A stretch of DNA of 60,812 nt, filler included. It is 6 parts of 6 records of this genome, joined end to end, with 100 filler letters (N's around TTAATTAATTAA, not from the genome) between each part and the next. Parts side by side here need not be neighbours in the genome. Positions count along the whole stretch, not along the records: positions 17,319 to 32,897 come from SRR2962707_4965; 5 more parts are not named here. One strand, 5' to 3'. A model generated the notes under the pieces. That model was not told where the DNA came from, did no database searches, and saw nothing but the letters and a program-made list of their open reading frames with translations. Positions within the stretch are counted from its first letter, which is position 1. Each line of letters starts with the position of its first letter. Made by a program: the position numbers and the translations under genes. Positions 789-33,415 of this stretch are shown here, one piece after another.

Positions 789-967
789 ACCATCAGCCAA
801 TCATCATGTGTCTATTAAGACATGATATCAGCTACCGATATCCAATGTCACTGAGTGGAATTATGACAATTATAAAACCAAAACTTTAATTGAAGCCGCA
901 TGTCCAGACTGGAGTTGAGGGCTGGGAGCGTGTTCTAATGACGTTGAAGTTTTTCGGGAGGATCATC

Positions 968-1357: not shown

Positions 1358-1362
1358 GGAAC

Positions 1363-2142: not shown

Positions 2143-2294
2143 TCGTTCCTCCTATGAAATAACCAAAAGTTTTGTCGACTTTATAATTTGAAAAAGCCCG
2201 GTCAATCAGGCGTTTCCGGCGTCATTTTATTGTCACTTGTAATTGCATGTAGTGACGCGAAAGTCGATTTACATCAACAGAGAAGGCAAAAAAT

Positions 2295-3984: not shown

Positions 3985-5063
3985 TTGTCACCCGACGATG
4001 TATCTTCTCCGCCATGGTAAAGTTCACTTTCCAGGTATTTCTCAAGCCCGAAGCGAACGAGTACGCCACTGACGGCTGCAACCGGAAGGGCGATCAGGAC
4101 CCCCGTCAATCCAAACAGCGCCCCGCCGGCCAGCATGGCAAAAATGATCCAGATCGGCGACAGTCCGACCTGGCCGCCGACCAGTTTCGGTGTAAGGAAA
4201 TAGCTTTCCAGCGTTTGCCCTATTACAAATACACCAAGGACAAGCAGTATCTGCACCCATTCCTGCTGAAATTGAGCAATTGCCATGCCCACGCCGATGA
4301 TCAGTCCGACAGCGGCGCCGATATAGGGAATGACAGCAAGGATACCGGAAGCAATGCCGATCAAAAGACCGGCCTTGAGACCGACAAGGCTGAGGCCAAC
4401 GGCATAAAAAATAGCCAGGACCAGGCAAACGCTTGCTTGCCCACGGACAAACCCCGCCAGAGTCCTGTCGATTTTTTTGACCTGTTCGCGGATCGTGTCT
4501 GCGGATTGACGAGGCAGCCAGCTGTCGACCTTGTCGACGATTTCGTCCCAGTCGCGCAACAAATAGAAGGCGACGAGCGGCGTGATTAAAATCAGCGAGA
4601 GCAGGTTCAGAATAGCGAGTCCGCCGCTCCAGATGTTGGCAATCACACCTGAAAGCCACTTGAAAACCGTGCCCGCATAGTTGCCGGCGGCTTCCTTCAG
4701 ATTGCTGACCGCTTCAGGGGAAAAATCTGCACGCAATTGCTCGAATAAAGGACCAAGAAGTATCTGTACCTGGTCGATCAATGCCGGGAGGAGCTTGATC
4801 GCAGCGGATATCTGTTTTTGCAGGGCAGGGAAAATCAGAACGACGATGCCCGTAACGGCCAGGAAGAAACCCAGAAGAATGATTGTCGTCGCGATTGACC
4901 GTGACAGGCCCATACGTTGCAGGCGGTCCGCCGCCGGATCAAAGAAATACGCAAGGGTGATGCCGACGACAAACGGCAGCAGAACATTGCTCAACAGATG
5001 AAGGATAACGCCCATACCGATCAGCGCGAGAACCCAGATAATCATTCGTTGTTCACGGCTCAC
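3981..5063 (-). CDS. AI-2E/PerM family transporter
   Basis: Multiple TM segments; LAGFVRGQ, IPYIG, LTPKLVG motifs; usual position upstream of hdaA. Confidence 0.9.
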   Translation of the reverse strand: MSREQRMIIWVLALIGMGVILHLLSNVLLPFVVGITLAYFFDPAADRLQRMGLSRSIATTIILLGFFLAVTGIVVLIFPALQKQISAAIKLLPALIDQVQILLGPLFEQLRADFSPEAVSNLKEAAGNYAGTVFKWLSGVIANIWSGGLAILNLLSLILITPLVAFYLLRDWDEIVDKVDSWLPRQSADTIREQVKKIDRTLAGFVRGQASVCLVLAIFYAVGLSLVGLKAGLLIGIASGILAVIPYIGAAVGLIIGVGMAIAQFQQEWVQILLVLGVFVIGQTLESYFLTPKLVGGQVGLSPIWIIFAMLAGGALFGLTGVLIALPVAAVSGVLVRFGLEKYLESELYHGGEDTSSGDK

Positions 5064-17318: not shown

Positions 17319-18197
17319 AACGAGCCGCGCGGCGGCGTCTTCCGTCACGTCAATCTGCTCGTGCCGCCCAAGGACCCAAGGGCGGCGATGGGCTGGATCA
17401 TCATGGAGCCCATCCACACCCCGCCCATGTCGGGCTCGAACTCTATATGTGTCTCGACCGTGCTTCTCGATACCGGCATCATCGAGATGAAAGAACCCGA
17501 AACCCGCTTCACGCTTGAAGCGCCGGGCGGATTGGTCGATGTGGTCGCCACCTGCAAGGACGGCAAGGCTGTTTCGATCCGCGTTACCAACCACCCCAGC
17601 TTCGCCCAGCGGCTAGACGCAACGATTGAAGTCGAGGGCTTGGGGACGCTGACCGTCGATACCGCTTATGGCGGCGACAGCTTCGTGCTTGTCGATGCGA
17701 AGTCGGTCGGCTTCTCTCTCAGCCCCGACGAGGCGAAAGACCTCGCAGCGGCCGGTATGAAGATAACGCGCGCAGCGACCGAACAATTGGGCTTTTCCCA
17801 CCCCACCAATCCCGACTGGTCCCACATCTCGTTTTGCCAGTTCACCGCCCCAATCGAAGTCAGGGACGGCATCAAAACGGGCCGCAACACAGTCGCCATT
17901 GAACCGGGCAAGCTTGATCGCTCGCCGACCGGCACCGGCTGTTCGGCACGCATGGCCGTGCTTCATGCCAGGGGCCAACTTGCCGTGGGGGAAGATTTCG
18001 CCGGTATCTCGATTATCGGTAGCCAGTTCAACTGCCGGATAGAGAGCACAACCGACCTTTCTGGCACTCCCGCCATTATCCCCTCGATTTCGGGGCGCGG
18101 CTGGGTCACTGAAACCAAGCAATTGATGCTCGATCCGTCCGATCCCTGGCCCGGTGGTTATCGTGTCGGCGACACCTGGCCGGCCCGGAGCACGTAA
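17319..18197 (+). CDS. Proline racemase family protein, probable trans-3-hydroxy-L-proline dehydratase (5' truncated)
   Basis: EPRGG; MSGSN and DRSPTGTG (Ser/Thr instead of Cys/Cys catalytic pair). Confidence 0.88.
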
Positions 18198-19207
18198 TGG
18201 CCCAGTCCCATATTACTTTCGCAGACCTGGTGGCGCTCCTTGAGGCGATTTTTGTTCGTTTCGGGACAAGCAGGCAAACCGCCGCCATCCTCGCCGACAA
18301 TTGCGCACGGTGCGAACGCGACGGCGCGAAAAGCCACGGCATCTTCAGAATGAAAGGTTATACCGACAGCCTCGCCACAGGCTGGGTGGACGGTACGGCC
18401 GAACCTGTTCTCGAAGACGCAGCGGCAGGCTTCCTGCGCGCCGACGCGCAAAATGGCTTTGCTCAACCCGCGCTGGCGCTGGCCCGCGATCTGCTCATCG
18501 AAAAGACCCGCACCAACGGCATCGCCCTGCTGGCCATCCGCAATTCCCACCATCTGAGCGCCCTCTGGCCCGACCTCGAGCCTTTCGCAGAGCAGGGTCT
18601 TATCGCGCTTTCCACGGTCAATTCCTTTGCCTGCACTGTACCGCATGGCGGGCAGAGCGCGGTCTTTGGCACTAACCCCATCGCCTTTGCTGCGCCGACC
18701 CGTTCCGGTGAACCCATCGTTTTCGACATGGCGACATCGTCGATGGCAAATGGCGATGTCCAGATCGCTGCCAGCCAGGGTCGCCAACTGCCTCCCGGTT
18801 CAGGCGTGGATCGCAACGGCAATCCGACCACCGACCCAAACGAAATTCTCAACGGCGGCGCTCTCCTCCCGTTCGGAGACCACAAAGGCTCGTCCATCTC
18901 GATGATGATCGAGCTCTTGTCAGCCGCTCTTACCGGGGGAAACTACTCGTTCGAGTTTGACTGGTCCGGCCACCCCGGCGCCGCGACGCCGCACACCGGC
19001 CAGTTGATCATCCTGATTAACGCCGCACTCGCCGGAGCAGCGCCTTTCGGCGTCCGCACCGAGGCCCTGATCAGCGAGATGATGTCCGCGGGCGTTACGC
19101 GCTTTCCGGGCCAGCATCGGTTTGCAAGGCGCAAAGCATCAGATGCCCAAGGCATTCCACTTACGACCGATGAGCTGAACTGGCTCGAAGCGCTGGCGGC
19201 GGATTGA
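18197..19207 (+). CDS. Ldh_2 family oxidoreductase, DpkA-like pyrroline-2-carboxylate reductase
   Basis: SHGIFRM, NSHHLSALW, GTNPIAF, DMATS, HKGS; coupled to racemase-family gene. Confidence 0.88.
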   Translation: MAQSHITFADLVALLEAIFVRFGTSRQTAAILADNCARCERDGAKSHGIFRMKGYTDSLATGWVDGTAEPVLEDAAAGFLRADAQNGFAQPALALARDLLIEKTRTNGIALLAIRNSHHLSALWPDLEPFAEQGLIALSTVNSFACTVPHGGQSAVFGTNPIAFAAPTRSGEPIVFDMATSSMANGDVQIAASQGRQLPPGSGVDRNGNPTTDPNEILNGGALLPFGDHKGSSISMMIELLSAALTGGNYSFEFDWSGHPGAATPHTGQLIILINAALAGAAPFGVRTEALISEMMSAGVTRFPGQHRFARRKASDAQGIPLTTDELNWLEALAAD

Positions 19208-19211
19208 GACA

Positions 19212-19979
19212 CTAAACCTTGATCCACACGGGGGCGTGGTCGCTGGCGCCGTCTTTGCCGCGCACTGACTTGTCGACACCTGCGGACTTGAGTTTGCCGA
19301 TGAGAGGGTGGCTCAGAAGGAGGTGGTCGAGGCGAAGGCCGGCGTTGCGGGGCCAGCGGTTTCGCATGTAGTCCCAGAACGTATAGACGGTCTCCTCGCC
19401 GAACTTCTGGCGGATGGCGTCCGACCAGCCTTGCGCGACAAGGCGCCTGAACAGGTCCCGGGCCTCCGGTGTCACAAGCGCGTTGTCCTTGTAGGATGTC
19501 GTTTCGTACATGTCGCGCGGTTCGGGTACGATGTTGTAGTCGCCTGCGAGCACCACCGGCAGGCCGGTCGCCCACAAATCCTGCGCATGGTCCAACAGGC
19601 GCTGGGTCCATTTGAGCTTGTAATCGAACTTCGGGCCGGGGCGCGGATTGCCGTTGGGCGCATAAAGGCAACCGATCAGAATGCCGTTGACGGCAGCCTC
19701 GATATAGCGGGCCTGCTTATCGCCGGCATCGCCCGGGAGTGTATCGCGGGTGAGCACCGGCTCGGCATCCCGCGCCAGGATGGCGACGCCGTTCCAGCTC
19801 GATTCTCCCTTCCAAACCGCCCCGTAGCCGGCATCTTCGAGTGCCCGGGCGGGAAACTGGCGCTGGCTGGCCTTGAGCTCCTGCAGGCAAACGACGTCCG
19901 GCGCGTTGTCGGCCAGCCAGTCCATGAGGTTGGGCAGCCGCCTGTTGATGCCGTTGATGTTGAAGGTGGCAATTTTCAC
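19212..19979 (-). CDS. xth: Exodeoxyribonuclease III / AP endonuclease
   Basis: KIATFNING, CLQELK, GDYN, RLDH, SDHAP; GTGA overlap with upstream gene. Confidence 0.94.
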   Translation of the reverse strand: MKIATFNINGINRRLPNLMDWLADNAPDVVCLQELKASQRQFPARALEDAGYGAVWKGESSWNGVAILARDAEPVLTRDTLPGDAGDKQARYIEAAVNGILIGCLYAPNGNPRPGPKFDYKLKWTQRLLDHAQDLWATGLPVVLAGDYNIVPEPRDMYETTSYKDNALVTPEARDLFRRLVAQGWSDAIRQKFGEETVYTFWDYMRNRWPRNAGLRLDHLLLSHPLIGKLKSAGVDKSVRGKDGASDHAPVWIKV

Positions 19980-20620
19980 GGGGTGAGACGGAGCGCCCAC
20001 GCTTGTGTGGCCGTGCCGATCGCCTTGAGGTGATCTGACGCCGACAGCCCGGAAATCGATTTGCGCGGCTTGAGGTCGTGATCCCCGTCTTCGAGCCAGA
20101 CGACTTCTATGGCGGGCGACAGCGTATAGCCCGAGACTTCGGCAAGGACGCCGAACGGGTCGCGCGTGCCCTGGAAAATCAGGGTCGGCGTACGGAGCTG
20201 CTCGAGATGCGCAGTGCGCAATTGTTCAGGTTTGCCGGGCGGGTGGAATGGATAGCCAAGACAAACGAGCCCGGCAATCCGGCCCGCCGCGAACAGCTCG
20301 TCGGCCACCATGCTGGCCACGCGCCCGCCCATCGACTTGCCGCCAATGATGAGCGGGCCTGACGTGGGACCCAGATCGTCGACGGCAGCCAGAAATTCGG
20401 GCATGACGCGCTCGGCGCGAGGTGGGGGCTTTCGGCCCGCCTCGGTTCGTCGGGCGGCCATATACCCAAATTCGAAACGGGCAACCCTTAGCTTTTCTTC
20501 TACAAGGGACTTGGTCACTGCAGTCATGGCGGCGGAGTCCATGGGCGCACCGGCGCCATGCGCCAGGAGAACGGTGGCACGCGCATCCTCGGGACCGTCA
20601 AACAGGAACTGGGTGGTCAT
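19976..20620 (-). CDS. Alpha/beta hydrolase (KANL3/Tex30-like)
   Basis: AHGAGA, GKSMGG, QGTRD, GDH triad; ATGA overlap with TPR gene. Confidence 0.88.
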   Translation of the reverse strand: MTTQFLFDGPEDARATVLLAHGAGAPMDSAAMTAVTKSLVEEKLRVARFEFGYMAARRTEAGRKPPPRAERVMPEFLAAVDDLGPTSGPLIIGGKSMGGRVASMVADELFAAGRIAGLVCLGYPFHPPGKPEQLRTAHLEQLRTPTLIFQGTRDPFGVLAEVSGYTLSPAIEVVWLEDGDHDLKPRKSISGLSASDHLKAIGTATQAWALRLTP

Positions 20621-21690
20621 CCGACCTGGCTCTGGGCTTGTGCAACGACGGCAAGTCCGGCACGGGCCCGCCGCGCCCAATCGGTATCGGTATCGAGTTC
20701 GAGATAGCGTCGCCAGCTGGCGGCTGCCGCCGGCAGATCGCCCATTTCGTAATCGAGCGCGGCGAGATTGTAGATGGCATCGGCATAGGCCGGATCGATT
20801 GCGATGGCCCGCGTGAGGTGATCGCGGGCAACAGTGTTCCGACCGAGCTCGCGCAATACGCCGGCGCAGTTGAACCATGATTCCACAAGGGCCGGATCGC
20901 GTTTGAGGGCGGTGGCATAGGCCAAGGCCGCACCGTTCAAGTCATCGACTTCCCGCAGGCAGTTGCCCTGGTTGAAGGGCGCAGTGGCATCGCTTGCGTC
21001 GATGGCGGCGCAATGGGCATAGAGCGTCGCCGCTTCGGCAAACAGCCCGGCGTGTTCGGCAGCTTCGGCGTGACTGAAATAGTCTTCGGCTTCATCGGTG
21101 TCGGGGGGCAGATCGAGCAGTCTCTGGCCGTCGAGTTCGGCCAGGGAGTGATCGTCCAGCGCCAGTATCCGGTCGCCCCGAGCCGCGAGGGTCAGCGCGG
21201 TGAGCGAGCCGACCGGGCCCACGGCGTGCACGGCGCGGGCGATGTCGTGCCAGCCGGCACCCGAGGCGACAAGGCCGGCATATTTTTTGGCCAGGATGAG
21301 GTCCCGAAAGGAAAACGGCTCTCTGTCGTGCTCGAAAGTGTCAAACAGCGCGAGCATGTCGAAATTGGATTCCGAGAGCCCTGACTGGTCCAGTATCGAG
21401 CGGCGGGTGAGCGGGCCGTTGGGCTGTGCAGCAAAAACGTCCATGTGCCGCATGAGCCCGTTTTCGCTGCGGACGTCGCCGATTGCGGAACGCGCAGCGG
21501 CAACGCGATCCTCGATTTCCGCCGCACCCTGCCGGGACAACAGGCTGCGGCAAAAAACGGCCATTGTGGTGCCGCGCGGCAGACCGCGGTGCATGCGGGC
21601 GCCGCGCTCGGCTACGCGGCGAGCTGCCGCGCGGAGCGGAAACGCCTTGAGCGCTCCGACGATGCCTATGCTCGTGCCACTGAGATCCAT
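20617..21690 (-). CDS. TPR protein with putative N-terminal BRCT and MerR-like HTH
   Basis: C-terminal TPRs (APFNQGNCL, SWFNCAGVL, AIYNLAAL); N-terminal domains inferred from pattern. Confidence 0.75.
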   Translation of the reverse strand: MDLSGTSIGIVGALKAFPLRAAARRVAERGARMHRGLPRGTTMAVFCRSLLSRQGAAEIEDRVAAARSAIGDVRSENGLMRHMDVFAAQPNGPLTRRSILDQSGLSESNFDMLALFDTFEHDREPFSFRDLILAKKYAGLVASGAGWHDIARAVHAVGPVGSLTALTLAARGDRILALDDHSLAELDGQRLLDLPPDTDEAEDYFSHAEAAEHAGLFAEAATLYAHCAAIDASDATAPFNQGNCLREVDDLNGAALAYATALKRDPALVESWFNCAGVLRELGRNTVARDHLTRAIAIDPAYADAIYNLAALDYEMGDLPAAAASWRRYLELDTDTDWARRARAGLAVVAQAQSQVG

Positions 21691-21696
21691 GCGGAC

Positions 21697-22614
21697 CTAT
21701 GCCTTCTTTCTCGGCGCCGCCTTGGACCTTGTTGTCTTGCTCGCCTCGAGCGCCGCCTTGAGCGAAGTTTTGGCGGGCGATTCCTTTGCGGCAGGGGCCG
21801 ACTTGCCCGCTGCTGTCTTGCCCTTGCTGCGGGCTGCGGGCTTGGCCTCGCCGAGGCTGGCTTTGAGCGCGTCCATCAGATTGATGACGTTGCCGCGATC
21901 GGGCGCAGCAGCGACGATGGGTTTGTGCCCTTTGAGCTTTTCCTTGATCATGGACATGAGGGCGACTTCGTAGCGGTCCTCATAGGCCTTGGGATCAAAC
22001 TCGGTTACCTTTTGCTCGATCAGCTTTTCAGCCAGTTCGAGCATTTCGGTTTCCGGTTCGCCGGCCGGGATATTGGAGAAATATTCAGTGGTGCCACGCA
22101 CCTCGTTGGGATTGCGCAGCGTGGTGATGAACATGCCGTTCTCACGTGCGCCGATGGTGACGATCCGCTCGCGGCTCGAAAGAACCAACCGGGCGATCGC
22201 GACACGGCCACTGCGGCGCATAGCCTCGCGCAGCACGATGAATGTCTCTTCGGCCATGGCCCCATCGGGCGCCAGGTAATAAGGCGCGTCCTGATAGAGG
22301 GCGTCGATCTCGTCTTCGTTCACGAAAGCCTCGATATTGAGGGTATGATTGGACTCGATGCGCACGGCCGCAAGATCGTCTTCGTCGATGATCACGTATT
22401 GCTTGGGCTCATACTCGTAGCCCTTGACCAGATCGCTACGCTCCACCAGCCCCAGTTCAGGATCGACCGGCTTCATGTTGATCCGGTTGTGGGTGTCCTT
22501 GTGAAGCTGATTGAAGCTGATCCTGTCCGACGTGCTTGTCGCGGGGAACATCTTTACCGCGCACGACACCAGACTCAGACGCAGGTGCCCTTTCCAACTG
22601 GCCCGTGGAGCCAT
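21697..22614 (-). CDS. ku: NHEJ protein Ku
   Basis: WKGHLRLSLVSCAV, LVKGYE, PYYLAP, YEDRY, VINLMDALKASL, basic tail. Confidence 0.96.
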   Translation of the reverse strand: MAPRASWKGHLRLSLVSCAVKMFPATSTSDRISFNQLHKDTHNRINMKPVDPELGLVERSDLVKGYEYEPKQYVIIDEDDLAAVRIESNHTLNIEAFVNEDEIDALYQDAPYYLAPDGAMAEETFIVLREAMRRSGRVAIARLVLSSRERIVTIGARENGMFITTLRNPNEVRGTTEYFSNIPAGEPETEMLELAEKLIEQKVTEFDPKAYEDRYEVALMSMIKEKLKGHKPIVAAAPDRGNVINLMDALKASLGEAKPAARSKGKTAAGKSAPAAKESPAKTSLKAALEASKTTRSKAAPRKKA

Positions 22615-22657
22615 AGTCGCCTCCTACTCGAAATACTCTTGGCACGATCTCGAATAA

Positions 22658-25087
22658 TCATGCCGGCAAATTCCGCGAGGACTCGTTAATGTCTGCCCAC
22701 GGGTCGCCGGACATCGTTAATAATCTCGGAAGCGTAGAGTAATTGAGGTCCTGCGGAGAGTCGATAGACTCCAGATCGTGCCAATAAAGGGGCGTAGAGA
22801 CGGGTAGGTGCGTGCGGGCGCGCAGCGAGTATACCGCGACGGCCGTCGCGCTGCGGGCGTTGCGATGGTAATCGATGAAGATGCGGCCCTTGCGGTTTTC
22901 CGCACCCATTACAGTGACGAAGGTGTCGCGCCCGGTCTGGGCGAGCGCCGCTGCGACGCGCGCGCTGGCGGCATGCGCCTGTTTCCAGCCCAGTTTGCGC
23001 GTGATGGGAACCACGATGTGAACCCCCTTGCCGCCCGATGTCTTGACGAACGGCACCAGGCCCATCGCCTCGAGTTCGCCGCGCAGATGCACAGCCGCGT
23101 TGACGACGTCGCGCCAGGTCACGCCCTCTCCGGGGTCGAGGTCGAATATGATGCGATCGGGGCGATCGAGATGGTCGACATGGGTGCCCCAGGCATGAAA
23201 TTCGACGGCCCCGAACTGGGCCAGCGCCAGATAGGCGCGGGTGTCACTCACGGCAATAAATGTCTGCTTTTCGCCCTCGGAATTGGCAGTTTCGACACTG
23301 GTGAGCGTTGCAGGCATGCCGGTGAAGGGATGACGCTGAAAAAAGCAATCAGCCGATTTGCCGGTGGGGCACCGGAACAGCGAAACCGGGCGCCCGAACA
23401 GGTGCGGCAGCATGAAATCGCCGATCCCGGCATAATAAACGGCGATGTCGAGCTTGGTGGGGCCGCTCCTGCCGAACAGACGGCGGGTGGGATTGGTGAC
23501 CCAGATGCCAGCCAGGTCCGCATCCGTCACAATGCGTTTGCGCGGTGCCGGCGGCTGGTGCGATAGACTGGCTTCCCGCAGCCCCTTGAACACGGCATGG
23601 CGCAGCTTACCGTCGGAGGTCATTGCGCCATACTGGATGCGTGCGGTGAGCACTGGTTTGACGGCCACGACCTCGCGGGGGGCGCCCTCGATCCTGTCGC
23701 CGCTTTCGAGCGCGCGCAGGCGGTCGAGCAGGTCGGCCATGCCTGCGGCGTCAAAGCCCGTTCCAACCTTGCCGCGATAGACCAGATCGTCGCCTACCCA
23801 TTCGGCCGCCGCTATCGCTCCGATGCCGCCGGCTTGAGGTGATGGCGTATAACCGGCGATCACGAAGTCACCGGTCTGGGGCGCCTTGACCTTGATCCAG
23901 GTGCTGGCGCGGCCGCCCGTGTACGCGCTGTCCGCCCGCTTGGACACGATGCCCTCGAGGCCGAGATCAGTCGCTTTCTCGAACAGGGCCTCGCCGTCCT
24001 TGGCCACATGATCGCTGTATTGGAGGGCCGGGCTCGCGCCCGTCAGCAACTGTTCGAGCAGCGCCTTGCGGTCGTTGAGCGCCACGCTGCGCAGGTCCCA
24101 GCCGTCAAGATAGAGCACATCGAAAGCATAAAAGACGAGATTGCCGGGGCGCCCGTCGGCAAGGGCCGCTTGCAAGAGACCGAACCGGCTGACCCCGGCG
24201 TCGTCGAGCACGACGATTTCGCCATCGATCACCGCATTGTGGCAGGGGAGCGCCGAGAGCATTTCGGGCAGATCGCCATAGCGCCGCGTCCAATCGAGCC
24301 CACCGCGCGTCGCTATCCGGGTGTTGCCCGCCTCGATATAGGCAAGGCTGCGATAGCCGTCGAATTTGATTTCGTGCAGCCAGTGCGCCGTCCTGGTGCT
24401 TTGTGGCGGCGCAGCGGCGGCTGTTGCCAATTGCAGCGAGAGCTTTTGCGGCATCGCCGCTTGAAGTGCGCCCTTGAGTTTGCCGGGCTTGAGGGTGCGG
24501 CGGCGTTTCGGGGCAGCGGGTGGCGGCAGCAGGCCTTCGATGCGGCGGCCCGACTTAACGCTTTCGGGGCGCTCGGTCAGGATGTCGCCCTCGGTGTCCA
24601 TGGACTGGTCATGCTCCTTGAAGAGCAGCCAGTTCGTCTTGTCCTTGTCCTCGGGGCGGCCCTTAAGCCGCGTGAGCATCCACCCGCCGTTGAGTTTTTG
24701 CCCTGCGAGGCGGAACTTGAAGGCGCCCTTGGCGATGTCAGTTTCGGGATCGCCCATCGGTGCCCAGGTTCCCGTATCCCAGACGATCATGGGTCCGCCG
24801 CCGTATTCCCCGGCGGGGATCAAACCCTCGAAGTCGATATAATCGATGGGGTGGTCTTCGGTCGCGACTGCGAGCCTCTTGTCTGCAGGGTTGAGCGAGG
24901 GCCCCTTGGGAACAGCCCAACTCTTGAGCACACCATTGAGTTCGAGCCGGAGATCGTAATGATCGGCCGTGGCATGATGCTTGTGAACGACGAAGCGAAA
25001 CGTGTCCTGCCCCTCTGCGCCGAACGGCTCACCGGTCCGCGAAAAATCGCGTTTCTTTCTGTAACGGTCGAGCTTATCCGGTGCCAT
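22658..25087 (-). CDS. ligD: DNA ligase D (phosphoesterase-ligase-polymerase)
   Basis: HYDLRLE (PE), EIKFDGYR and EGIVSK (ligase), FDLDPG and KTSGGKGVH (primase-polymerase). Confidence 0.96.
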   Translation of the reverse strand: MAPDKLDRYRKKRDFSRTGEPFGAEGQDTFRFVVHKHHATADHYDLRLELNGVLKSWAVPKGPSLNPADKRLAVATEDHPIDYIDFEGLIPAGEYGGGPMIVWDTGTWAPMGDPETDIAKGAFKFRLAGQKLNGGWMLTRLKGRPEDKDKTNWLLFKEHDQSMDTEGDILTERPESVKSGRRIEGLLPPPAAPKRRRTLKPGKLKGALQAAMPQKLSLQLATAAAAPPQSTRTAHWLHEIKFDGYRSLAYIEAGNTRIATRGGLDWTRRYGDLPEMLSALPCHNAVIDGEIVVLDDAGVSRFGLLQAALADGRPGNLVFYAFDVLYLDGWDLRSVALNDRKALLEQLLTGASPALQYSDHVAKDGEALFEKATDLGLEGIVSKRADSAYTGGRASTWIKVKAPQTGDFVIAGYTPSPQAGGIGAIAAAEWVGDDLVYRGKVGTGFDAAGMADLLDRLRALESGDRIEGAPREVVAVKPVLTARIQYGAMTSDGKLRHAVFKGLREASLSHQPPAPRKRIVTDADLAGIWVTNPTRRLFGRSGPTKLDIAVYYAGIGDFMLPHLFGRPVSLFRCPTGKSADCFFQRHPFTGMPATLTSVETANSEGEKQTFIAVSDTRAYLALAQFGAVEFHAWGTHVDHLDRPDRIIFDLDPGEGVTWRDVVNAAVHLRGELEAMGLVPFVKTSGGKGVHIVVPITRKLGWKQAHAASARVAAALAQTGRDTFVTVMGAENRKGRIFIDYHRNARSATAVAVYSLRARTHLPVSTPLYWHDLESIDSPQDLNYSTLPRLLTMSGDPWADINESSRNLPA

Positions 25088-25226
25088 GCACAATAAACGC
25101 AGAAAGTCGGAACTGACTCCAGTGTCAGCATTGCGGATACTTTTTCAATCAGTTTCACGGCCTCAGGTGTCCGCCAGGGCGCCGCAGATGATGTTGAAGG
25201 ACGGCAGCGGGCTGTACTGCGCGCCG

Positions 25227-26084
25227 TCACAGGCCGATCCGTATGCCGTCATGGCCTACGATAAGGGGGCCGTCCCAATGGCCCGCGACGGCATCCTGCC
25301 AGTCCTTGACGCCGTAGTCCGGATCGTCCGAGGGGATCAGGTGCGACAGGGCAAGGCGCCTGACGCCGGCCTTGGTGGCAATCCTGGCCGCGTCATGTGC
25401 GAAGGTGTGCGAGCGAAGCCAATGCGCCATGAGCTTGTCAGAACCATTGCCCACGCGCGCCATGAGTGCCGGCAGGGCGGCTTCGAGCATGGCTTCGTGG
25501 ATCAACAGATCGGCGCCCCGGGCAAAGTCTTCGAGCGCTTTGATAGGAGCGGTATCGCCGGAGAACACGACATGGGTCCGGTCGGTCCTGAACGAGAAGG
25601 CGAAACAATCGACCAGCGGCGGATGTTCGGTGCGGATCGCCGTGACCGAAACACCGCCCCGGGCCATGACCGTACCCTCGTCGAGCACGTGGATCGCGAC
25701 GAGGTTCCGCAAGTCGGGCCTGCCCTCGTCCTCGATCCGCAGGTCGATATCGGCCTTCATTGAGGCAAGGAAGCTATCCCAGTAGGCGTCGAGTCCTGCG
25801 GGGCCGTAGAGGTCCACATCGGTCTTGAGCCCGGCGGTCCAGGCGGTGTGCAGGAGCGGCCCGAGTTCGAGGTAATGATCCGAATGCATATGACTGACAA
25901 AGATCAGCGACAGATCTTTCAGTTGCATCCCCTGCCCGACAAGCCCGCGGGTCACGCCCAGACCACAATCCACCACGATCTGCTGGCCGTTGAGGCAAAG
26001 CAGGTTCGCCGTCGGCATCGACGACCCGGGCCGGATCGCAGGACCGCCCTTGGTGCCCAGAAGCGCGACATAATCTTCTGTCAT
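25227..26084 (-). CDS. MBL-fold hydrolase, RNase Z/arylsulfatase-like
   Basis: LLGTKGGP, HMHSDH, SGDT, HEA, LSHLIP. Confidence 0.88.
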   Translation of the reverse strand: MTEDYVALLGTKGGPAIRPGSSMPTANLLCLNGQQIVVDCGLGVTRGLVGQGMQLKDLSLIFVSHMHSDHYLELGPLLHTAWTAGLKTDVDLYGPAGLDAYWDSFLASMKADIDLRIEDEGRPDLRNLVAIHVLDEGTVMARGGVSVTAIRTEHPPLVDCFAFSFRTDRTHVVFSGDTAPIKALEDFARGADLLIHEAMLEAALPALMARVGNGSDKLMAHWLRSHTFAHDAARIATKAGVRRLALSHLIPSDDPDYGVKDWQDAVAGHWDGPLIVGHDGIRIGL

Positions 26085-26093
26085 GTTGCCCTC

Positions 26094-27440
26094 TCAGACG
26101 GCTGCAAAACCAGCGTCGAGCGCCGACAGGATGGTGTCTGCGTCCCGCTCGGTGAGTACAAGCGGGGGTGACAGGATAAGGTTGGGGCCGGAGATACGGA
26201 CCATGGCGCCGCTCTGATAGGCAACTTCGTGGACCGTCGTGGCGGTGATGGCGTCGATGGGCTTTCTGGTTGCGCGGTCGCTAACCATTTCGATGGCAGT
26301 CATCAGGCCGTAACCGCCTCGCACGTCGCCGATGATGTCGTATTTTTCCCGAAGTTTGAGGCAGCCCTGATAGAGCTGGGTGCCGCGCGCGGCTGCGTTC
26401 TCAACGACGTTCAGGCGCTTGGTTTCGGCGAGGCAAGCCAAGGCGGCGGCGGCGCCCACCGGGTGACCGGAATAGGTATATCCATGGCCGATCCTGGCGG
26501 CAGGGTTGTTCTCGAACACTTCGATCATCCTGTCGCCCAGCATCACGGCACCAAAGGGGAAATAGCCGTTGGTGATGGCCTTGGCCGTGCACATCATGTC
26601 TGGTTGGACGCCCCAGAGCCGCGCTCCGGACCATGCACCCGTGCGGCCATAGGCGGTGATCACCTCATCGGCGATCAGCAAGATGCCGTTGCGGTTACAT
26701 ATCTCCTGAACCATGGGGGCAAAGGACTTGTGAGGCGGGATGACGCCACCGGCCCCGAGGATCGGCTCCATGATCATGGCAGCAATGGTGTTGGTCCCCT
26801 GGAACGCGATTTCATCCTCAAGGGCGGCGGCGCAGAGTTGGGCCAGCCTCTCGGGGTTCGTCTCGTTGAACGGGTTGCGGTAAGTATAGGGCGCGGGGAT
26901 GTGATAGCAGCCGGGCAGAAGCGGCTCATAGGCATTGCGGAAGTTCGCATTGCCGTTCACCGACGCGCCGCCGATATGTGTGCCGTGATAGCCCTTCTTG
27001 AGGCTGAGGAACTTGGTGCGACCCGCTTCGCCGCGCAGCTTGTGATATTGGCGGGCGAGGCGCAGCGCAGTTTCCACGCTGTCTGACCCGCCGGATGTAA
27101 AGAATGCGCGGGATAGGCCGTCGGGCGCGAAAAACTCGCCTAGTTCATAAGATAGCTCAATCGCCACGTCGTTGCTGGTGCCACGGAATGTCGAATAATA
27201 GGGCAGCTTGTCGAGTTGAGCCGCAATCGCATCTTTGACCGGCTGACAGGAATACCCAAGGTTCACGTTCCACAGGCCCCCGACAGCGTCGACGACCGTG
27301 TGTCCGTCGATGTCGGTAATGGTGACGCCATCCGATCCGGTGATGATCCTGGGCGGCTGGTCGATACTGTCTTGCGGCGATGTCATCGGGTGCCACATCA
27401 GGCGGCCGTTGTACTCCTTGAGAAAATTTGAGTCTTTCAC
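26094..27440 (-). CDS. Class III (omega-amine) aminotransferase
   Basis: SGGSDSVE, GYHG, ADEVITAYGRTG, TAKAIT. Confidence 0.93.
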   Translation of the reverse strand: MKDSNFLKEYNGRLMWHPMTSPQDSIDQPPRIITGSDGVTITDIDGHTVVDAVGGLWNVNLGYSCQPVKDAIAAQLDKLPYYSTFRGTSNDVAIELSYELGEFFAPDGLSRAFFTSGGSDSVETALRLARQYHKLRGEAGRTKFLSLKKGYHGTHIGGASVNGNANFRNAYEPLLPGCYHIPAPYTYRNPFNETNPERLAQLCAAALEDEIAFQGTNTIAAMIMEPILGAGGVIPPHKSFAPMVQEICNRNGILLIADEVITAYGRTGAWSGARLWGVQPDMMCTAKAITNGYFPFGAVMLGDRMIEVFENNPAARIGHGYTYSGHPVGAAAALACLAETKRLNVVENAAARGTQLYQGCLKLREKYDIIGDVRGGYGLMTAIEMVSDRATRKPIDAITATTVHEVAYQSGAMVRISGPNLILSPPLVLTERDADTILSALDAGFAAV

Positions 27441-28246
27441 GATACGGTTTCCAGTGCGGGCGTTTGTGACAGAGACCTGGCCCAGGCGGCTTCGACATTG
27501 GCCGGTAGGGTGCCGCCCCAGTTGCGGGTAATTTCACGACTGGCGGCGGCCAGATTGGTCTTGATTTTGTGTTCCAGTTCCGGCGTGAAACGCGATGCCA
27601 CGCTGGCTACTGAAACGGCCCCCGCGATCAGGCCGGAATGGTCGAACACCGGCGCGGAAATGGCGTGAATTTCTGCTTCGAAGCTCTGATTGGCGCGGCC
27701 AAATCCGGTTTCCCGGATGGCGGCGATCACGGCAGCCAAATCTTCCCGCGTGACTGGGGTGGCTGACGTGAACCTCTCTAGATTTGCCGCCGCGACCTCA
27801 AAAAGGGCCTCCGGCCCAAAAGCCAATACGCAGACGCCCGAGGCGGTCGCGTGCAGCGGGAAAGTGCTGATGTCGACGATTGCGCGTGTGCCGTGCTCGG
27901 GGGATTCGCAAGAGGCCAGCGCATAGAGGGTTGAACCGGACAAGACCGTGGCATGCGCCGTTTCGCCTGTTGTCCGGGCGAGCATTGTCAGTGCGGCAAG
28001 CGCCCCTTCTTTTCGTGGCACCGTGGCTTCGCGTACCTGCGCCAGCTGCATGACGGCCGGGCCAAGGCGATAGTGTCTGGTCGCCGGATTCTGCTCAACA
28101 AAACCAGCGGCCTCAAGAGCTTGCATGTGCCGATAGGTCGTCGCCTTGTCCCGTCCTGCAAGGCGGCACAGCTGTGACAGGCCGATCTCTGGCCTGGTGG
28201 GCGAGAAGCAGGACAAGAACGCCAGCGCCTTAGTGACAGTGGACAT
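27437..28246 (-). CDS. IclR family regulator
   Basis: STVTKAL...KATTYR HTH, PLHATASG, ISAPVF; GAGGTGG RBS. Confidence 0.92.
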   Translation of the reverse strand: MSTVTKALAFLSCFSPTRPEIGLSQLCRLAGRDKATTYRHMQALEAAGFVEQNPATRHYRLGPAVMQLAQVREATVPRKEGALAALTMLARTTGETAHATVLSGSTLYALASCESPEHGTRAIVDISTFPLHATASGVCVLAFGPEALFEVAAANLERFTSATPVTREDLAAVIAAIRETGFGRANQSFEAEIHAISAPVFDHSGLIAGAVSVASVASRFTPELEHKIKTNLAAASREITRNWGGTLPANVEAAWARSLSQTPALETVS

Positions 28247-28356
28247 CGAGACCACCTCATTTCGTTGGGTTTCCAAAAAGCGTTTGACACAATATATTTA
28301 ACAAGGCAACTTTTATTTAGAAACATCGGTTCGAAATGCGATCCGTTTAAGAGGAA

Positions 28357-29850
28357 ATGGAAATGCTTGAACAAGGCAAGATCGACGCCCTCCGGGCGCA
28401 GCCTGTGCCGGCGTTCTCCCACCTGATCGACGGGCGGCATGTTGCGGCCTCCAACGGGGCCACGATGGACATCATTTCACCGATTGACGGGAAGGTCCTG
28501 ACGACAGCAGCACGGGGCACGGCGGCAGACATGGAGGCAGCGATCGCCGCGGCAAGGGCTGCGTTCGAGGATCGACGCTGGGCCGGGCAACCGCCGTCCG
28601 CCCGCAAGAAAGTCCTGATGAAATGGGCCGATCTGATCGAGGCCAACGCGCTGGAACTTGCCGTGCTCGGCGTGCGCGACAACGGGACCGAGATCGGTAT
28701 GGCGATCAAGGCGGAACCCGCCTCTGCCGCCGCGACGATCCGCTATTATGCCGAGGCGCTGGACAAGATCTACGGGGAAATCGCGCCGACCCAATCGGAC
28801 GTTCTGGGGCTGATTCACAAGGAACCCGTGGGGGTCGTGGGGGCGATCATTCCGTGGAACTTCCCGATGATGATCGGTGCGTGGAAGCTCGGTCCCGCCC
28901 TGGCGATGGGCAATTCGGTGATCTTGAAGCCTGCCGAGACGGCGTCCTTGTCCCTCATGCGGATGGCCGACCTGGCTCTCGAGGCCGGGCTGCCACCGGG
29001 CGTCCTCAACGCGGTAACGGGCGAAGGGGCAGTCGTGGGCGAAGCGATGGGCCTCTCGATGGACCTGGACGTGCTGGTATTTACCGGGTCAGGCGGCACG
29101 GGGCGACGGTTGATGGAGTATTCGGCCCGCTCGAACATGAAGCGCGTTTATCTGGAACTGGGCGGAAAATCGCCCAATATTGTTTTTGCCGACGCGCCCA
29201 ACCTGGCAGAGGCCGCCAAGGTGACTGCAGCCGGAATATTCCGCAATGCGGGCCAGGTCTGCGTCGCAGGCTCCCGGCTGCTGGTCGAGGCATCGATCCA
29301 CGACGAATTCGTCGCCGCAGTAACCAGGGCAGCCGAGGCCATGCGCGTCGGTGACCCGCTGAAGACCGACACGCAGATCGGTGCGGTGAATTCCGAGGCG
29401 CAGCTGACGCAGAATTTGAAGTTCGTTGAAACGGCACAGGCTGAAGGCGGCCAGATCGTCACCGGCGGGACGCGCATCCTGCAAGACAGCGGCGGCTGTT
29501 ACATGGCTCCAACCATCGTGACGGACGTGACGCCCGAAGCGACCCTGGCGCAAAAAGAAGTTTTTGGCCCGGTCCTTGGCGTCACTTCGTTCCGCACTGA
29601 CGACGACGCCGTGAGGATTGCCAATGCCACCGTTTACGGCCTGGCAGGCGGCGTCTGGACATCGAACCTCGGGCGCGCACACCGGATGGTCCGCGACGTA
29701 AGGACAGGTGTCATGCACGTAAACACCTATGGCGGCGCCGATGGAACCGTTCCGCTGGGTGGCGTTGGCCAGTCGGGGAACGGGGTCGACAAGTCACTGC
29801 ATGCGATCGAGAAGTACATCAACCTCAAGACCGCCTGGATCAGGCTATGA
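28357..29850 (+). CDS. Aldehyde dehydrogenase (PuuC/aryl-acetaldehyde-like)
   Basis: IPWNFP, FTGS, ELGGKSP, GQVC, EVFGP. Confidence 0.94.
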   Translation: MEMLEQGKIDALRAQPVPAFSHLIDGRHVAASNGATMDIISPIDGKVLTTAARGTAADMEAAIAAARAAFEDRRWAGQPPSARKKVLMKWADLIEANALELAVLGVRDNGTEIGMAIKAEPASAAATIRYYAEALDKIYGEIAPTQSDVLGLIHKEPVGVVGAIIPWNFPMMIGAWKLGPALAMGNSVILKPAETASLSLMRMADLALEAGLPPGVLNAVTGEGAVVGEAMGLSMDLDVLVFTGSGGTGRRLMEYSARSNMKRVYLELGGKSPNIVFADAPNLAEAAKVTAAGIFRNAGQVCVAGSRLLVEASIHDEFVAAVTRAAEAMRVGDPLKTDTQIGAVNSEAQLTQNLKFVETAQAEGGQIVTGGTRILQDSGGCYMAPTIVTDVTPEATLAQKEVFGPVLGVTSFRTDDDAVRIANATVYGLAGGVWTSNLGRAHRMVRDVRTGVMHVNTYGGADGTVPLGGVGQSGNGVDKSLHAIEKYINLKTAWIRL

Positions 29851-31079
29851 GCGCCAAGACCATACTGGTGATCGGCACCTATGACACAAAGAACGACGAG
29901 CTGAGCTTTCTCGCGGGTGTGATCCGGGATCAGGGCGGCAAGGTGCTGACGATGGACGTGTCCGTTCTGGGTGACCCGCAGCAGCCGGCCGACTATTCCA
30001 AGCATGTCGTGGCGGAGGAAGGCGGAAGTTCCATTGCCGCTGCGATCGCGTCGGGCGAAGAAAACGATGCCATGCAAATCATGGCCGCGGGGGCTTCGCG
30101 CTTGACAGCGCGGCTCTATCTCGAGGGCAAGTTCGACGGTATGATCGTGCTCGGTGGCACCATGGGCACCGATCTGGCACTGGACGTGACGACGGCTCTA
30201 CCGCTGGGCGTGCCCAAATATATCGTGTCGACCGTGGCCTATTCACCGCTGCTACCGGGCGCAAGGATGGCCGCAGATACGCAGATGATCCTGTGGGCCG
30301 GGGGGCTTTTCGGGATGAACTCGGTCTGCAAGGCGACGCTCAGCCAGGCGGCGGGCGCCGTTTTGGGCGCTGCCAAAGCCGTCATTCCACCCGATTTTGG
30401 CAAACCGCTTATCGGGATGACTTCGCTGGGAACATCGGCGCTGAAATACATGGTGACGCTGAAGCCTGCGCTGGAGGAGCGCGGCTACGAGGTCGTTGTC
30501 TTTCACGCCACAGGCATGGGCGGCCGGGCATTCGAAACCCTCGCAGCACAGGGCGCGTTTGCCTGCGTGTTCGACTTCTGCACCCAGGAGCTTGGCAATC
30601 ACATCAACGGATCAAGCGTGACGGCGGGAGAAAGCCGGTTGACGGCCGCCGGGCTCAACGCAACGCCACAGCTTGTCGCGCCGGGCTGTTACGATCTTGT
30701 CGATATCGTTGGCTGGGAGCCGGTCCCCGAGAAATGGGCAAACCATCAGAAAAGACCGCATAACCGGCTGTTGCTGAACATCATCCTGAACGCGGACGAA
30801 AGAATAGAGGTTGCGCATGCCCACGCGCAGCAACTTGCAGTTGCCAAGGGGCCCACTGCGCTGCTGCTTCCCGAGCGCGGCCTGGGCGAATGGGACAGGG
30901 AAGGCGCCGAACTGCACGACATGGCGGGGCTAACCGGGTTCCTGCACGCCCTTGAGGCCGCGTGCCCGCCGAATGTGACCCTTCACCGCGTCGATTGCCA
31001 CATCAACGACGCGGAATTTACAGACAAGGCACTGGAGATCTTCGATGGGTGGCGCGCCGATGGCCGCGTCGCGGGCTAG
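29847..31079 (+). CDS. Tm-1-like ATP-binding domain protein (UPF0261)
   Basis: GTYDTK, LPLGVPK.IVST, VFHATGMGG, HIND. Confidence 0.88.
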   Translation: MSAKTILVIGTYDTKNDELSFLAGVIRDQGGKVLTMDVSVLGDPQQPADYSKHVVAEEGGSSIAAAIASGEENDAMQIMAAGASRLTARLYLEGKFDGMIVLGGTMGTDLALDVTTALPLGVPKYIVSTVAYSPLLPGARMAADTQMILWAGGLFGMNSVCKATLSQAAGAVLGAAKAVIPPDFGKPLIGMTSLGTSALKYMVTLKPALEERGYEVVVFHATGMGGRAFETLAAQGAFACVFDFCTQELGNHINGSSVTAGESRLTAAGLNATPQLVAPGCYDLVDIVGWEPVPEKWANHQKRPHNRLLLNIILNADERIEVAHAHAQQLAVAKGPTALLLPERGLGEWDREGAELHDMAGLTGFLHALEAACPPNVTLHRVDCHINDAEFTDKALEIFDGWRADGRVAG

Positions 31080-31513
31080 TCCGTGGAGCCGGGATCGAGA
31101 AGCGCCAACAAGTCCAGCAGCGTTTCATATTTGTCTTCGCCCAGCGTGGCCTTGAACCCCTCGACGATGCGCGCCGCCTCATCCATTCGGTCGTCGATGA
31201 TCCTTTGGCCCTGGGCCGTGATTTCGATGAATTGGCGCCGCCGGTCAACGTCGTCGCGGGTCTGGGTGATCAGGCCCTTGTCGCGCAGGGTTGCCGCGAT
31301 CCGCGTGAGACTGGGAAACAGAAGGCTGGAGCGGTCGGCCAACGTCTTGGTGTCGAGCCGGCCATGTTCGGCCAATACCCGCAAGACGCGCCATTGCTGC
31401 TCGGTGATCCCCGTTTCGGCCAGCATGTCGCGGATAGGCGCCATCACACCTTCACGGGCGCGGATCAACGCGATGGGAAGCGAGCGGGTCGTGGAAGGGA
31501 GTCTGGACGTCAT
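31076..31513 (-). CDS. hpaR: Homoprotocatechuate operon repressor, MarR family
   Basis: RSLPIALIRAREGVM, TEQQWRVLR, PSLTRI; divergent from hpa genes. Confidence 0.9.
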   Translation of the reverse strand: MTSRLPSTTRSLPIALIRAREGVMAPIRDMLAETGITEQQWRVLRVLAEHGRLDTKTLADRSSLLFPSLTRIAATLRDKGLITQTRDDVDRRRQFIEITAQGQRIIDDRMDEAARIVEGFKATLGEDKYETLLDLLALLDPGSTD

Positions 31514-31584
31514 GGGGACCTCGGAAGCTTCTTGATCGGCAAGTGCACTGTGAACCCGGTCTTGACAACACAGCATTAAATTAT

Positions 31585-31611
31585 TTAACTCGTCAATAAT
31601 TAACATGTTAA
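31585..31611. promoter_or_regulatory. Candidate tandem HpaR operators
   Basis: Perfect palindrome TTAACATGTTAA (31600-31611) and variant TTAACTCGTCAA (31585-31596); TTGACA at 31562. Confidence 0.65.
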
Positions 31612-31620
31612 GGAATTGAC

Positions 31621-32010
31621 ATGCCGCACTTCCATATCGAGTATTCGGCCAACCTCGAAGGTGAGGTGGACATGGGTGCCTTGTGCCAGGCCATCCGCGC
31701 AGAGGCTGCCGAGATCGCGACCTTCCCGACAGCAGGTATTCGCGTTCGGGCGGTCTGCGTCGATCACGTCGCGATGGCCGATGGAACCCCCAGGCATGGA
31801 TTCATCGACCTGTCCATCCGCTTGCGCGAGGGCCGTCCGGATGACGTTAAAAAAGACGCCCTCACCCGTGTCTTTGCGGCACTCAAAGATTTCACGGCGC
31901 CGGCGATGCGGACCCGGTCCATCGCCCTCTCCGCAGAGATGCGGGACATCAATGCCGACCTTTCCCTGAAATTCGGGAATGTCCGCGACCATTTGGAGGA
32001 CATCGCATGA
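31621..32010 (+). CDS. hpaF: 5-carboxymethyl-2-hydroxymuconate isomerase
   Basis: Pro-1 tautomerase start MPHFHIEYSANL, GIRVRA, GR. Confidence 0.9.
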   Translation: MPHFHIEYSANLEGEVDMGALCQAIRAEAAEIATFPTAGIRVRAVCVDHVAMADGTPRHGFIDLSIRLREGRPDDVKKDALTRVFAALKDFTAPAMRTRSIALSAEMRDINADLSLKFGNVRDHLEDIA

Positions 32011-32897
32011 GCGTGCTCGACGACAATATTGCCAGCCTGAACGGCTATCTGGAGCGTTTCCGCAAGACGGGCATCCTGAACAGGATCGGCGGTGTGGACG
32101 CGGCTGGCGGAGCAGGACGGTTTCAGACGATCTCTCCAGTGGACAAGAGCATTATCTGCGACGTGGCCCACGGCACAGCAGACGATATAGATGCCGCCGC
32201 CAAAGCTGCGCACAAGGCTTTCGTCGTGTGGCGCGACATGCCTGCGCTGGAACGCAAGAAAATCCTTATCAGGGTGGCCGAAGGGATTGAGGCGCGTGCC
32301 GAGGAAATCGCACTCTGCGAATGCTGGGATACCGGCCAGGCGTACAAATTCATGTCCAAGGCCGCGTTGCGTGGCGCGGAGAACTTCCGCTATTTCGCAG
32401 ATCAGGTTGTACAGGCCCGCGACGGCCGCCACTTGAAATCCCCCACGTTAATGAACGTCACCACCCGCGTGCCGATTGGCCCGGTGGGCGTTATCACCCC
32501 GTGGAATACCCCTTTCATGCTGTCCACCTGGAAGATCGCGCCCGCGCTCGCCGCCGGGTGCACGGTGGTCCACAAGCCCGCCGAGGCATCCCCTTTGACG
32601 GCGCGCCTCTTGGTTGAGATTGCCGAGGAAGCAGGTCTGCCGCCCGGTGTGCTCAATACCGTCAACGGCTTTGGCGAAGGTGCCGGCAAAGCGCTCTGCG
32701 AGCATCCGCTCATCAAGGCAATCGCCTTCGTCGGCGAAAGCCGCACGGGAAGCCTGATCACCAAACAAGGCGCCGACACGCTCAAGCGCAACCACCTTGA
32801 GTTGGGTGGAAAGAACCCGGTTATCGTCTTTGACGACGCTGATCTGGATCGCGCGCTCGATGCGGTAATCTTTATGATTTACTCGATCAATGGCGAA
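32007..32897 (+). CDS. hpaE: 5-carboxymethyl-2-hydroxymuconate semialdehyde dehydrogenase (3' truncated)
   Basis: TPWNTPFMLSTWK, ELGGKNP, YSINGE; hpa context. Confidence 0.9.
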
Positions 32898-32997
32898 NNN
32901 NNNNNNNNNNNNNNNNNNNNNNNNNNNNNNNNNNNNNNNNNTTAATTAATTAANNNNNNNNNNNNNNNNNNNNNNNNNNNNNNNNNNNNNNNNNNNN
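32898..32997. other. Artificial contig spacer
   Basis: N run with TTAATTAATTAA linker. Confidence 0.99.
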
Positions 32998-32998
32998 G

Positions 32999-33415
32999 GA
33001 AGAAGGGTGGTATTACAAAGGCATGAAACACCGCCGCTGGGTCCGCTTCAATCGGCACGATATTCTCCAGGACAAGACGTATTGGTGGAAGGGCTGGCCA
33101 CAGGAATCAAGAATGGCCTATTATGATTTCAAAAAAACGCAGCTGAAAGAAGTAATCCCTGTTCATTACGGGGAGAAAAACGGCGAATATTGGGCCTTTC
33201 ATGAGGATGGATCCATCGCAGTAATCGGTGAGTACAAATTCAATCACAAGGTTGGACTATGGAAAGAGTACTACGATGATCGCCGATTAAAGAGAGAAGT
33301 GATGTATTCGGAAGATCCATTTGATTTCAAATTTAATCCCTACATCGTAAGGGAGTGGGATCAGAAAGGAACCCTGATATATGACAGGGCTAAATTCCTT
33401 AAGAGCCAGAATTAA
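32999..33415 (+). CDS. MORN-variant repeat (YwqK-like) protein, C-terminal part
   Basis: GEKNGEYWAFHEDG, KVGLWKEYYD repeats; open from contig start. Confidence 0.7.
   Translation, partial: EEGWYYKGMKHRRWVRFNRHDILQDKTYWWKGWPQESRMAYYDFKKTQLKEVIPVHYGEKNGEYWAFHEDGSIAVIGEYKFNHKVGLWKEYYDDRRLKREVMYSEDPFDFKFNPYIVREWDQKGTLIYDRAKFLKSQN

Follow-up and report, generated by a model that had tools for sequence, protein, structure and literature searches.

A block of five consecutive open reading frames (ORFs) on the minus strand of a DNA stretch of 60,812 nucleotides, filler included (hereafter the window, six parts joined end to end, of which positions 17,319 to 32,897 come from record SRR2962707_4965), is one conserved, translationally coupled unit. 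It carries the non-homologous end joining (NHEJ) genes ligD and ku, followed by genes for a tetratricopeptide repeat (TPR) protein, an alpha/beta hydrolase and the exodeoxyribonuclease III family enzyme Xth. The third protein, designated BRCT-TPR here, has an N-terminal BRCT domain that is missing from public annotation. We propose that it may act as an adaptor that couples end cleaning to Ku and LigD in an extended form of bacterial NHEJ, a reading to which we give about an even chance. The proposal starts from the identities of the domains, intact catalytic residues, the conserved order and spacing of the genes and their tie to one Ku subtype. The standard account of bacterial NHEJ has two proteins, and the accessory factors and the cleaning of "dirty" ends beyond LigD's own domains are largely open subjects. 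What is new here is that three extra genes, one with an unannotated BRCT domain, are locked to one Ku/LigD subtype in many species.

Conservation and spacing of the five-gene block

The preliminary description of this DNA placed five co-oriented genes at 19212-25087, with a 6-bp gap after ku and ATGA/GTGA coupling of the last three. Direct reading of the sequence agreed with the coordinates, the minus strand and the boundaries of the block. Six bases lie between the ku stop codon (TAG, 21699-21697) and the ATG of the BRCT-TPR gene at 21690, and the gap between the ligD stop and the ku start is 43 bp. The BRCT-TPR stop codon (TGA, 20619-20617) and the hydrolase start (ATG, 20620-20618) share an ATGA overlap; the hydrolase stop (TGA, 19978-19976) and the xth start (GTG, 19979-19977) share a GTGA.

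A genome scan with one genome per species identified 313 relatives of the BRCT-TPR protein, the best 80 of which were kept; the counts below are for these 80 loci. They come from Pelagibacterium, many Devosia, Sinorhizobium/Ensifer, Pararhizobium, Mesorhizobium and metagenome-assembled genomes (MAGs) and reach down to 48% identity. The order ligD-ku-BRCT/TPR-hydrolase-xth, on one strand, was the same in about 74 of the 80 species (Hyphomicrobiales). The ku gene was directly upstream of the BRCT-TPR gene in all 79 loci with upstream DNA, and the hydrolase gene was downstream in 79/80, locus L031 being without it. The xth gene came next in 74/80 loci (four of the six misses were contig ends), and LigD preceded in 76, with three others cut. 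Gaps of 10 bp or less separated ku from the BRCT-TPR gene in 63/79 loci, the latter from the hydrolase gene in 62/79 and the hydrolase gene from xth in 59/74, with median gaps of 6, 1 and -4 bp, respectively. Because gaps this short recur over the loci of 80 species, the tight packing exceeds chance.

The genes that flank the block in the window recurred only in L001 (same organism, 99% identity) and each in one further locus; the flanks in Sinorhizobium meliloti were different again. Thus, the order of the block is kept while the flanking genes change, as expected of a block that travels as a unit. We also searched 72,556 plasmids. A Ku relative was encoded in 665 of them, yet only 87 carried a Ku at least 60% identical to the window Ku. 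The BRCT-TPR gene was likewise present in 87, all from Sinorhizobium, Ensifer or Pararhizobium; the two sets of 87 were matched by number rather than row by row, and the adjacency of ku and the BRCT-TPR gene was checked in one record (NZ_CP021828.1). The agreement of the plasmid counts with those of this Ku subtype suggests that the accessory genes are tied to one Ku/LigD subtype. The conserved linkage to ku and ligD that the preliminary description called for was therefore borne out by the co-occurrence check, both in the gene neighborhood of ku and in the plasmid counts.

The MAG locus L003 contains a second, divergent LigD/Ku pair on the opposite strand (465-4040), 2.5 kb from the five-gene block and 37% identical to the pair of the window. 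This second pair is without a BRCT-TPR gene of its own, which fits with accessory genes that belong to one Ku subtype only.

Architecture of the BRCT-TPR protein

Searched alone, the BRCT-TPR protein of the window matched Pfam and NCBIfam models at its TPRs only (residues about 197-345), with no match to the Pfam BRCT model, and public annotation names the protein "tetratricopeptide repeat protein". Its N-terminal 195 residues are conserved as well as the rest of the protein, and the family of this N-terminal half comprises 111 representative clusters at E <=1e-3. The single sequence of the 195 residues retrieved only Cullin-5 from the PDB (E 0.2), a candidate that we rejected. A profile of 36 N-terminal halves (residues 1-195) matched the BRCT domains of Escherichia coli LigA (2owo residues 597-670, E 2.6e-7), human RFC1 (2ebu, E 5.2e-6; 2k6g, E 4.6e-5) and Thermus LigA (1l7b, E 2.4e-5; 1dgs, E 1.2e-3), the best and only significant sequence matches in the PDB profile search. 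The Pfam BRCT model (PF00533) matched 13 of the 36 members (best E 1.6e-7), the window member not among them; of 30 distant full-length relatives, 4 were above the gathering score and 11 had E <0.1. The AlphaFold2 (AF2) model has the BRCT order strand-helix-strand-strand-helix-strand-helix at residues 7-82, with a predicted local distance difference test (pLDDT) score of 80-93 (strands at 7-11, 32-35, 43-46 and 73-75; helices at 19-28, 56-69, with a further one at 49-53, and 76-82). Profile matches and model topology thus uphold the BRCT domain, including its LigA type, that had been called from a residue pattern.

The BRCT domain (residues 1-88) has a net charge of +6 and an isoelectric point (pI) of 11.5 (family mean charge, +7.4), and 64 sequences all have Gly12, Arg20, Arg39 and Thr41. 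As a single, basic domain, it is like the BRCT domains of LigA and RFC1, which work on DNA. It differs from them in its place at the N terminus of a non-enzymatic protein, fused to a winged helix and TPRs.

Four proteins of the representative library (P0124, P0141, P0153 and P0172) run from a C-terminal part of Ku through an Arg/Ala/Gly-rich stretch into the BRCT-TPR protein. We rejected them as true Ku-BRCT fusions, and dropped them as Rosetta-stone evidence, because the Arg/Ala/Gly-rich stretches point to frame errors that error-prone assemblies introduced over the short interval between ku and the BRCT-TPR gene. Longer architectures, sought with a profile, yielded only 6 proteins, none of a different kind, and a search with the distant relative P0173 returned 218 proteins of a distant branch (25-35% identity).

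Since Foldseek returned only TPR proteins for the full-length model, we folded residues 86-197 separately. The AF2 model, from a 49-sequence alignment, had a pLDDT of 90.6 and a predicted template modeling (pTM) score of 0.83, and consists of two helices, a loop, two or three helices and three strands, in this order. Foldseek found 81 matches to it in the PDB at E <=10 and none (0/81) at E 1e-3. The top matches (E 0.44-7.5) were almost all of the MerR family (Rv1828, TnrA, GlnR, RacA, CvkR, MerR, Listeria MerR and CbpM), with probabilities of 0.5-0.80 and none significant by E. TnrA, GlnR, RacA and CbpM were the best structural neighbors of residues 96-156, with template modeling (TM) scores on the target of 0.59-0.63 and root-mean-square deviations of 2.6-4.8 Å over 60-75 columns. 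An Atlas feature search of the middle region pointed to three MerR_1 clusters at 0.78-0.79, which the tool's calibration treats as a lead only. Profile matches among the 36 members were all below cut-off for MerR_1 (3/36, best E 0.023) and MerR (1/36, 0.081), with nothing for the window member; other weak Pfam helix-turn-helix (HTH) matches were to HTH_IclR (4), HTH_38 (1) and MarR_2 (1).

The model suggests that residues 96-156 are likely to adopt a MerR-like winged-helix fold. However, this region has a net charge of -2 (-3 in the wing; family mean, -0.9), and the would-be recognition helix carries the invariant residues Asp117 and Glu120. Further, the model has three beta strands after helix 4 instead of the coiled-coil dimerization helix of MerR proteins, which was not found. 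We do not accept the region as a standard MerR regulator because it is net acidic and has strands in place of the coiled coil; an acidic surface and the missing dimerization helix also make DNA binding by this domain doubtful. Hence, the MerR-type HTH of the preliminary description is upheld as a fold resemblance only, as the Foldseek top list indicates, and falls as a family assignment (E >=0.44 and no profile match above cut-off). The same features, together with the lack of a Pfam MerR match above cut-off, set the region apart from the minimal MerR-type proteins. One of its structural neighbors, the MerR-like CbpM, is a protein-binding protein, whose solved complex is with the J-domain of CbpA and not with DNA (3ucs).

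The three modeled strands make up a small beta subdomain (residues 157-197). Here lies the family's most conserved motif, ELDGQ, whose Gly188 and Gln189 do not vary even among relatives at 25-30% identity. The stretch ELDGQ(R)LL (residues 185-197, 21100-21135) is the most conserved of the whole family and had no match to a known family or motif in the PDB profile search or in Pfam. The TPR domain that follows was matched above cut-off by Pfam TPR_2, TPR_11 and others, and its AF2 helices span residues 198-356; Foldseek aligned it with OGT and consensus-TPR structures at E 1e-9. This domain is very acidic (net charge -13, pI 4.5). A complex prediction for two Ku and the BRCT-TPR protein, run without alignments or controls, gave scores of 0.21 and 0.02 (mark 0.34) and is uninformative on binding either way.

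The core pair, the accompanying enzymes and the surrounding genes

LigD matched the Pfam models LigD_N, DNA_ligase_A_M/C and LigD_Prim-Pol, and scored 652 bits against NCBIfam TIGR02776 (cut-off 373). Ku matched Pfam Ku (E 4.7e-43) and TIGR02772 (280 bits, cut-off 150). By these sequence matches, the two proteins are the canonical bacterial NHEJ pair, with all three LigD domains present. The core of Ku (residues 1-254) has a net charge of -9 and its Lys/Arg-rich C-terminal tail (residues 255-305) of +11 (family mean, +9.4). The PADLOC anti-phage models matched none of the five cluster proteins (0 families for 5/5 at E <=1e-3).

The preliminary description had also named a serine hydrolase and an ExoIII enzyme, and both names agree with the matches obtained. 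The fourth protein scored 236 bits against Pfam Abhydrolase_11 (PF20408, cut-off 27), and the nucleophile elbow GKSMG (G94-K-S96-M-G98), D154 and H181 are invariant in 74/74 orthologues; no NCBIfam model matched it and no close solved structure was found. It is predicted from its sequence to be a serine hydrolase with an intact Ser-Asp-His triad. Xth scored 221 bits against TIGR00633 (cut-off 99). Residues N7, E34, D147, N149, D218, D247 and H248, which we take from the ExoIII/APE1 literature to be catalytic, are invariant in 66/66 Xth sequences.

The closest solved relative of Xth is NExo of Neisseria meningitidis (2jc4/6fk4; PMC3300015, PMC6294502), which aligns over the full length (E 4.4e-52). 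The relevant passages of PMC3300015 describe NExo as a 3'-phosphatase and remover of 3' lesions without apurinic/apyrimidinic (AP) endonuclease activity. Its specificity is set by His167 at the abasic-sugar pocket, which blocks the AP-endonuclease activity; Ser or Gly at this position gives AP activity (PMC3300015). Xth of the cluster keeps the catalytic residues yet differs at the position of His167, where it has Leu168, invariant in 66/66. Leucine is bulky like His and unlike Ser or Gly. A 3'-end-cleaning role of Xth is plausible because NExo is its closest solved relative, with Leu168 at the place of His167.

Coordinates of the five genes, and of the domains of the BRCT-TPR protein, in the window.
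Feature	Position	Strand	Description
ligD	22658..25087	-	809 aa; 3'-phosphoesterase (PE), ATP-dependent ligase and primase-polymerase domains
ku	21697..22614	-	305 aa
BRCT-TPR gene ("TPR" gene)	20617..21690	-	357 aa
BRCT domain, LigA/RFC1 type	21427..21690	-	residues 1-88 of the 357-aa BRCT-TPR protein
MerR-like winged helix-turn-helix fold (likely)	21223..21405	-	residues 96-156 of the BRCT-TPR protein
Small beta-strand subdomain	21100..21222	-	residues 157-197 of the BRCT-TPR protein; ends in ELDGQ
TPR domain and stop codon	20617..21099	-	residues 198-357; nine helices
Alpha/beta hydrolase, Abhydrolase_11	19976..20620	-	214 aa
xth, exodeoxyribonuclease III family	19212..19979	-	255 aa; GTG start

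Downstream of the block, a proline-racemase-family gene and an Ldh_2-family dehydrogenase gene (17361-19207, plus strand) overlap by one base at 18197 and converge on xth, with 4 bases between them and its end. They are probably a hydroxyproline-type catabolic pair with no relation to the repair block. The upstream flank is likewise metabolic, with genes for a metallo-beta-lactamase-fold protein, an aminotransferase and an IclR regulator. The G+C content drops from 0.58-0.65 to about 0.32-0.35 within 300 bases at 32750-33050 and is then 0.40-0.44 to ~56 kb. The break is at the end of an aldehyde-dehydrogenase ORF (32007-32945, plus strand) that covers profile positions 7-267 of 461, and it points to inserted foreign DNA or to a chimeric assembly join.

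A proposed role in end joining, its alternatives and known systems

In the extended NHEJ that we propose, the basic BRCT domain of the adaptor would sit on DNA at a break or nick, like the BRCT regions of LigA and Rfc1; the Rfc1 BRCT is reported to adjoin a 5' DNA site. The acidic TPR and winged-helix parts would hold protein partners, for which the basic C-terminal tail of Ku, the hydrolase and Xth are candidates. We infer the Ku tail as a possible TPR ligand from the complementarity of their charges (TPR -13, Ku tail +11). The adaptor would in this manner couple to Ku/LigD joining both the 3'-end cleaning by Xth and the removal, by the hydrolase, of some ester- or amide-linked end adduct. 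The substrates would be "dirty" breaks from desiccation, oxidation or radiation. A bolder version, which we put forward tentatively and regard as the less probable, is that of a first BRCT-scaffolded prokaryotic end-joining machine. Its BRCT domain would recognize broken or nicked DNA, its TPR domain would clamp the Ku tail, and the adaptor would bring in a NExo-like 3'-end cleaner and a serine hydrolase to strip a protein, peptide or ester adduct from DNA ends. Such a machine would be a counterpart of XRCC1/PNKP/APE1/TDP-type processing, dedicated to one Ku/LigD subtype.

The S. meliloti copy of the block, with genes for LigD, Ku, a TPR protein, an alpha/beta hydrolase and Xth in a row, is on a 1.66-Mb megaplasmid. 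In the passages of the study by Dupuy, Sauviac and Bruand (Nucleic Acids Res 2019, PMC6379672) that concern it, ligD2 is SMb20685 and ku2 is SMb20686, and the two constitute the main NHEJ pathway of S. meliloti. The next two genes, SMb20687 and SMb20688, are drawn in its Fig. S1, neither named nor studied. Because this orthologous locus serves as the main route of NHEJ in a harmless model organism with deletion and end-joining assays at hand, the adaptor hypothesis is directly testable.

Several points weigh against the adaptor. Binding, co-transcription and biochemical roles are all drawn from genome and structure evidence. The phosphate-binding motif of BRCT domains, given in the review PMC10386641 as Ser/Thr-Gly in the b1-a1 loop and Thr/Ser-x-Lys at the start of a2, is altered: the Thr/Ser before the conserved Gly, as in LigA and RFC1, is replaced in this family by Ile, Leu or Val (Val11-Gly12 in the window protein), so that the canonical Ser/Thr-Gly of the pocket is not kept. 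A phosphate pocket of a different build is conceivable. Some loci also depart from the pattern. L003 and L031 are without xth despite the presence of downstream DNA, L031 also without the hydrolase, and L057 has no LigD match despite the DNA being there. Further, the counts are not 80 independent events because most of the loci are from Devosia. Finally, ectopic ku2 or ligD2 complements the S. meliloti deletions and brings plasmid joining back to near wild-type levels (PMC6379672), which suggests that the downstream genes may be dispensable for clean, restriction-cut ends.

This complementation, in which ku2 and ligD2 alone were enough for plasmid joining (PMC6379672), would also be expected if the three downstream genes were a separate module for the cleaning of ends in single-strand-break or base-excision repair (as XRCC1 works with an APE1-like enzyme), co-located and co-regulated with ku under stress rather than working with Ku and LigD at double-strand breaks. 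Consistent with such a module, the nearest relatives of the BRCT domain, in LigA and RFC1, work at nicks and gaps, and Xth is closest to NExo, a base-excision enzyme. General nick repair would not, however, be expected to be strictly tied to one Ku paralogue. The BRCT-TPR gene is beside ku in every locus with upstream DNA, at a median distance of 6 bp, and on plasmids it is present only where this Ku subtype occurs. We consider a separate module unlikely, though it is the strongest of the alternatives.

Somewhat less probable still is that the BRCT-winged-helix-TPR protein is a transcription factor (HTH plus TPR sensor) that controls the ku operon, for example in its induction by stress. The MerR-like fold is consistent with this role, as is the report of a separate, stress-induced promoter for S. 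meliloti ku2 (PMC6379672). Further, an imperfect palindrome, TGACACTGGAGTCA, is present ~25 bases upstream of the ligD start (25114-25127, minus strand), with a perfect TGACGCTGGCGTCA at the aligned place in Pelagibacterium xiamenense (L002). Ten upstream regions were compared, which align poorly (mean column identity, 37%); the remaining 8 do not keep the palindrome, which may thus serve as an operator only in the closest relatives. A regulatory role is also at odds with the acidic winged helix and wing, with Asp117 and Glu120 as invariant residues of the supposed recognition helix and with the missing MerR coiled coil. The stop/start overlaps with the two enzymes suggest output in step with them and not that of a low-copy regulator. 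No promoter-like site was found upstream of ligD; the sigma-70 and terminator scans were uninformative. The window contains a single EcfG/RpoE2-type box (GGAAC-N15-18-CGTT), at 29743, no more than chance would give, and none is near the cluster. It is very improbable that the genes are unrelated neighbors whose common strand reflects descent within a single order: all 80 loci are from Hyphomicrobiales or MAGs, most of them Devosia, but order and tight spacing persist to 48-53% BRCT-TPR identity in at least three families while the flanks are replaced.

The adaptor reading can be set against two known systems. The Ku2/LigD2 pathway of S. meliloti has the orthologous five-gene locus, yet its description treats NHEJ as Ku plus LigD, and the passages and supplement of PMC6379672 that bear on the locus do not mention tetratricopeptide, TPR, xth or hydrolase. 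Within the full-text literature searched, which excludes subscription journals, we found no description of the three accessory genes or of a bacterial BRCT-TPR protein, and the corresponding passages of the BRCT review PMC10386641 do not mention TPR, MerR or a bacterial NHEJ BRCT. If the adaptor reading is true, the pathway would provide the first function for a bacterial Abhydrolase_11 hydrolase. The second comparison is with the eukaryotic BRCT scaffolds and end-joining proteins (XRCC1, LigIV-XRCC4 and Pol lambda/mu). It is one of analogy, with the BRCT fold as the only homology shown, and implies no membership in these families. As in those systems, a BRCT protein is encoded here with an end-joining ligase, Ku and end-cleaning enzymes and may act like a scaffold, in which case BRCT-based scaffolding of end joining would be no eukaryotic invention.

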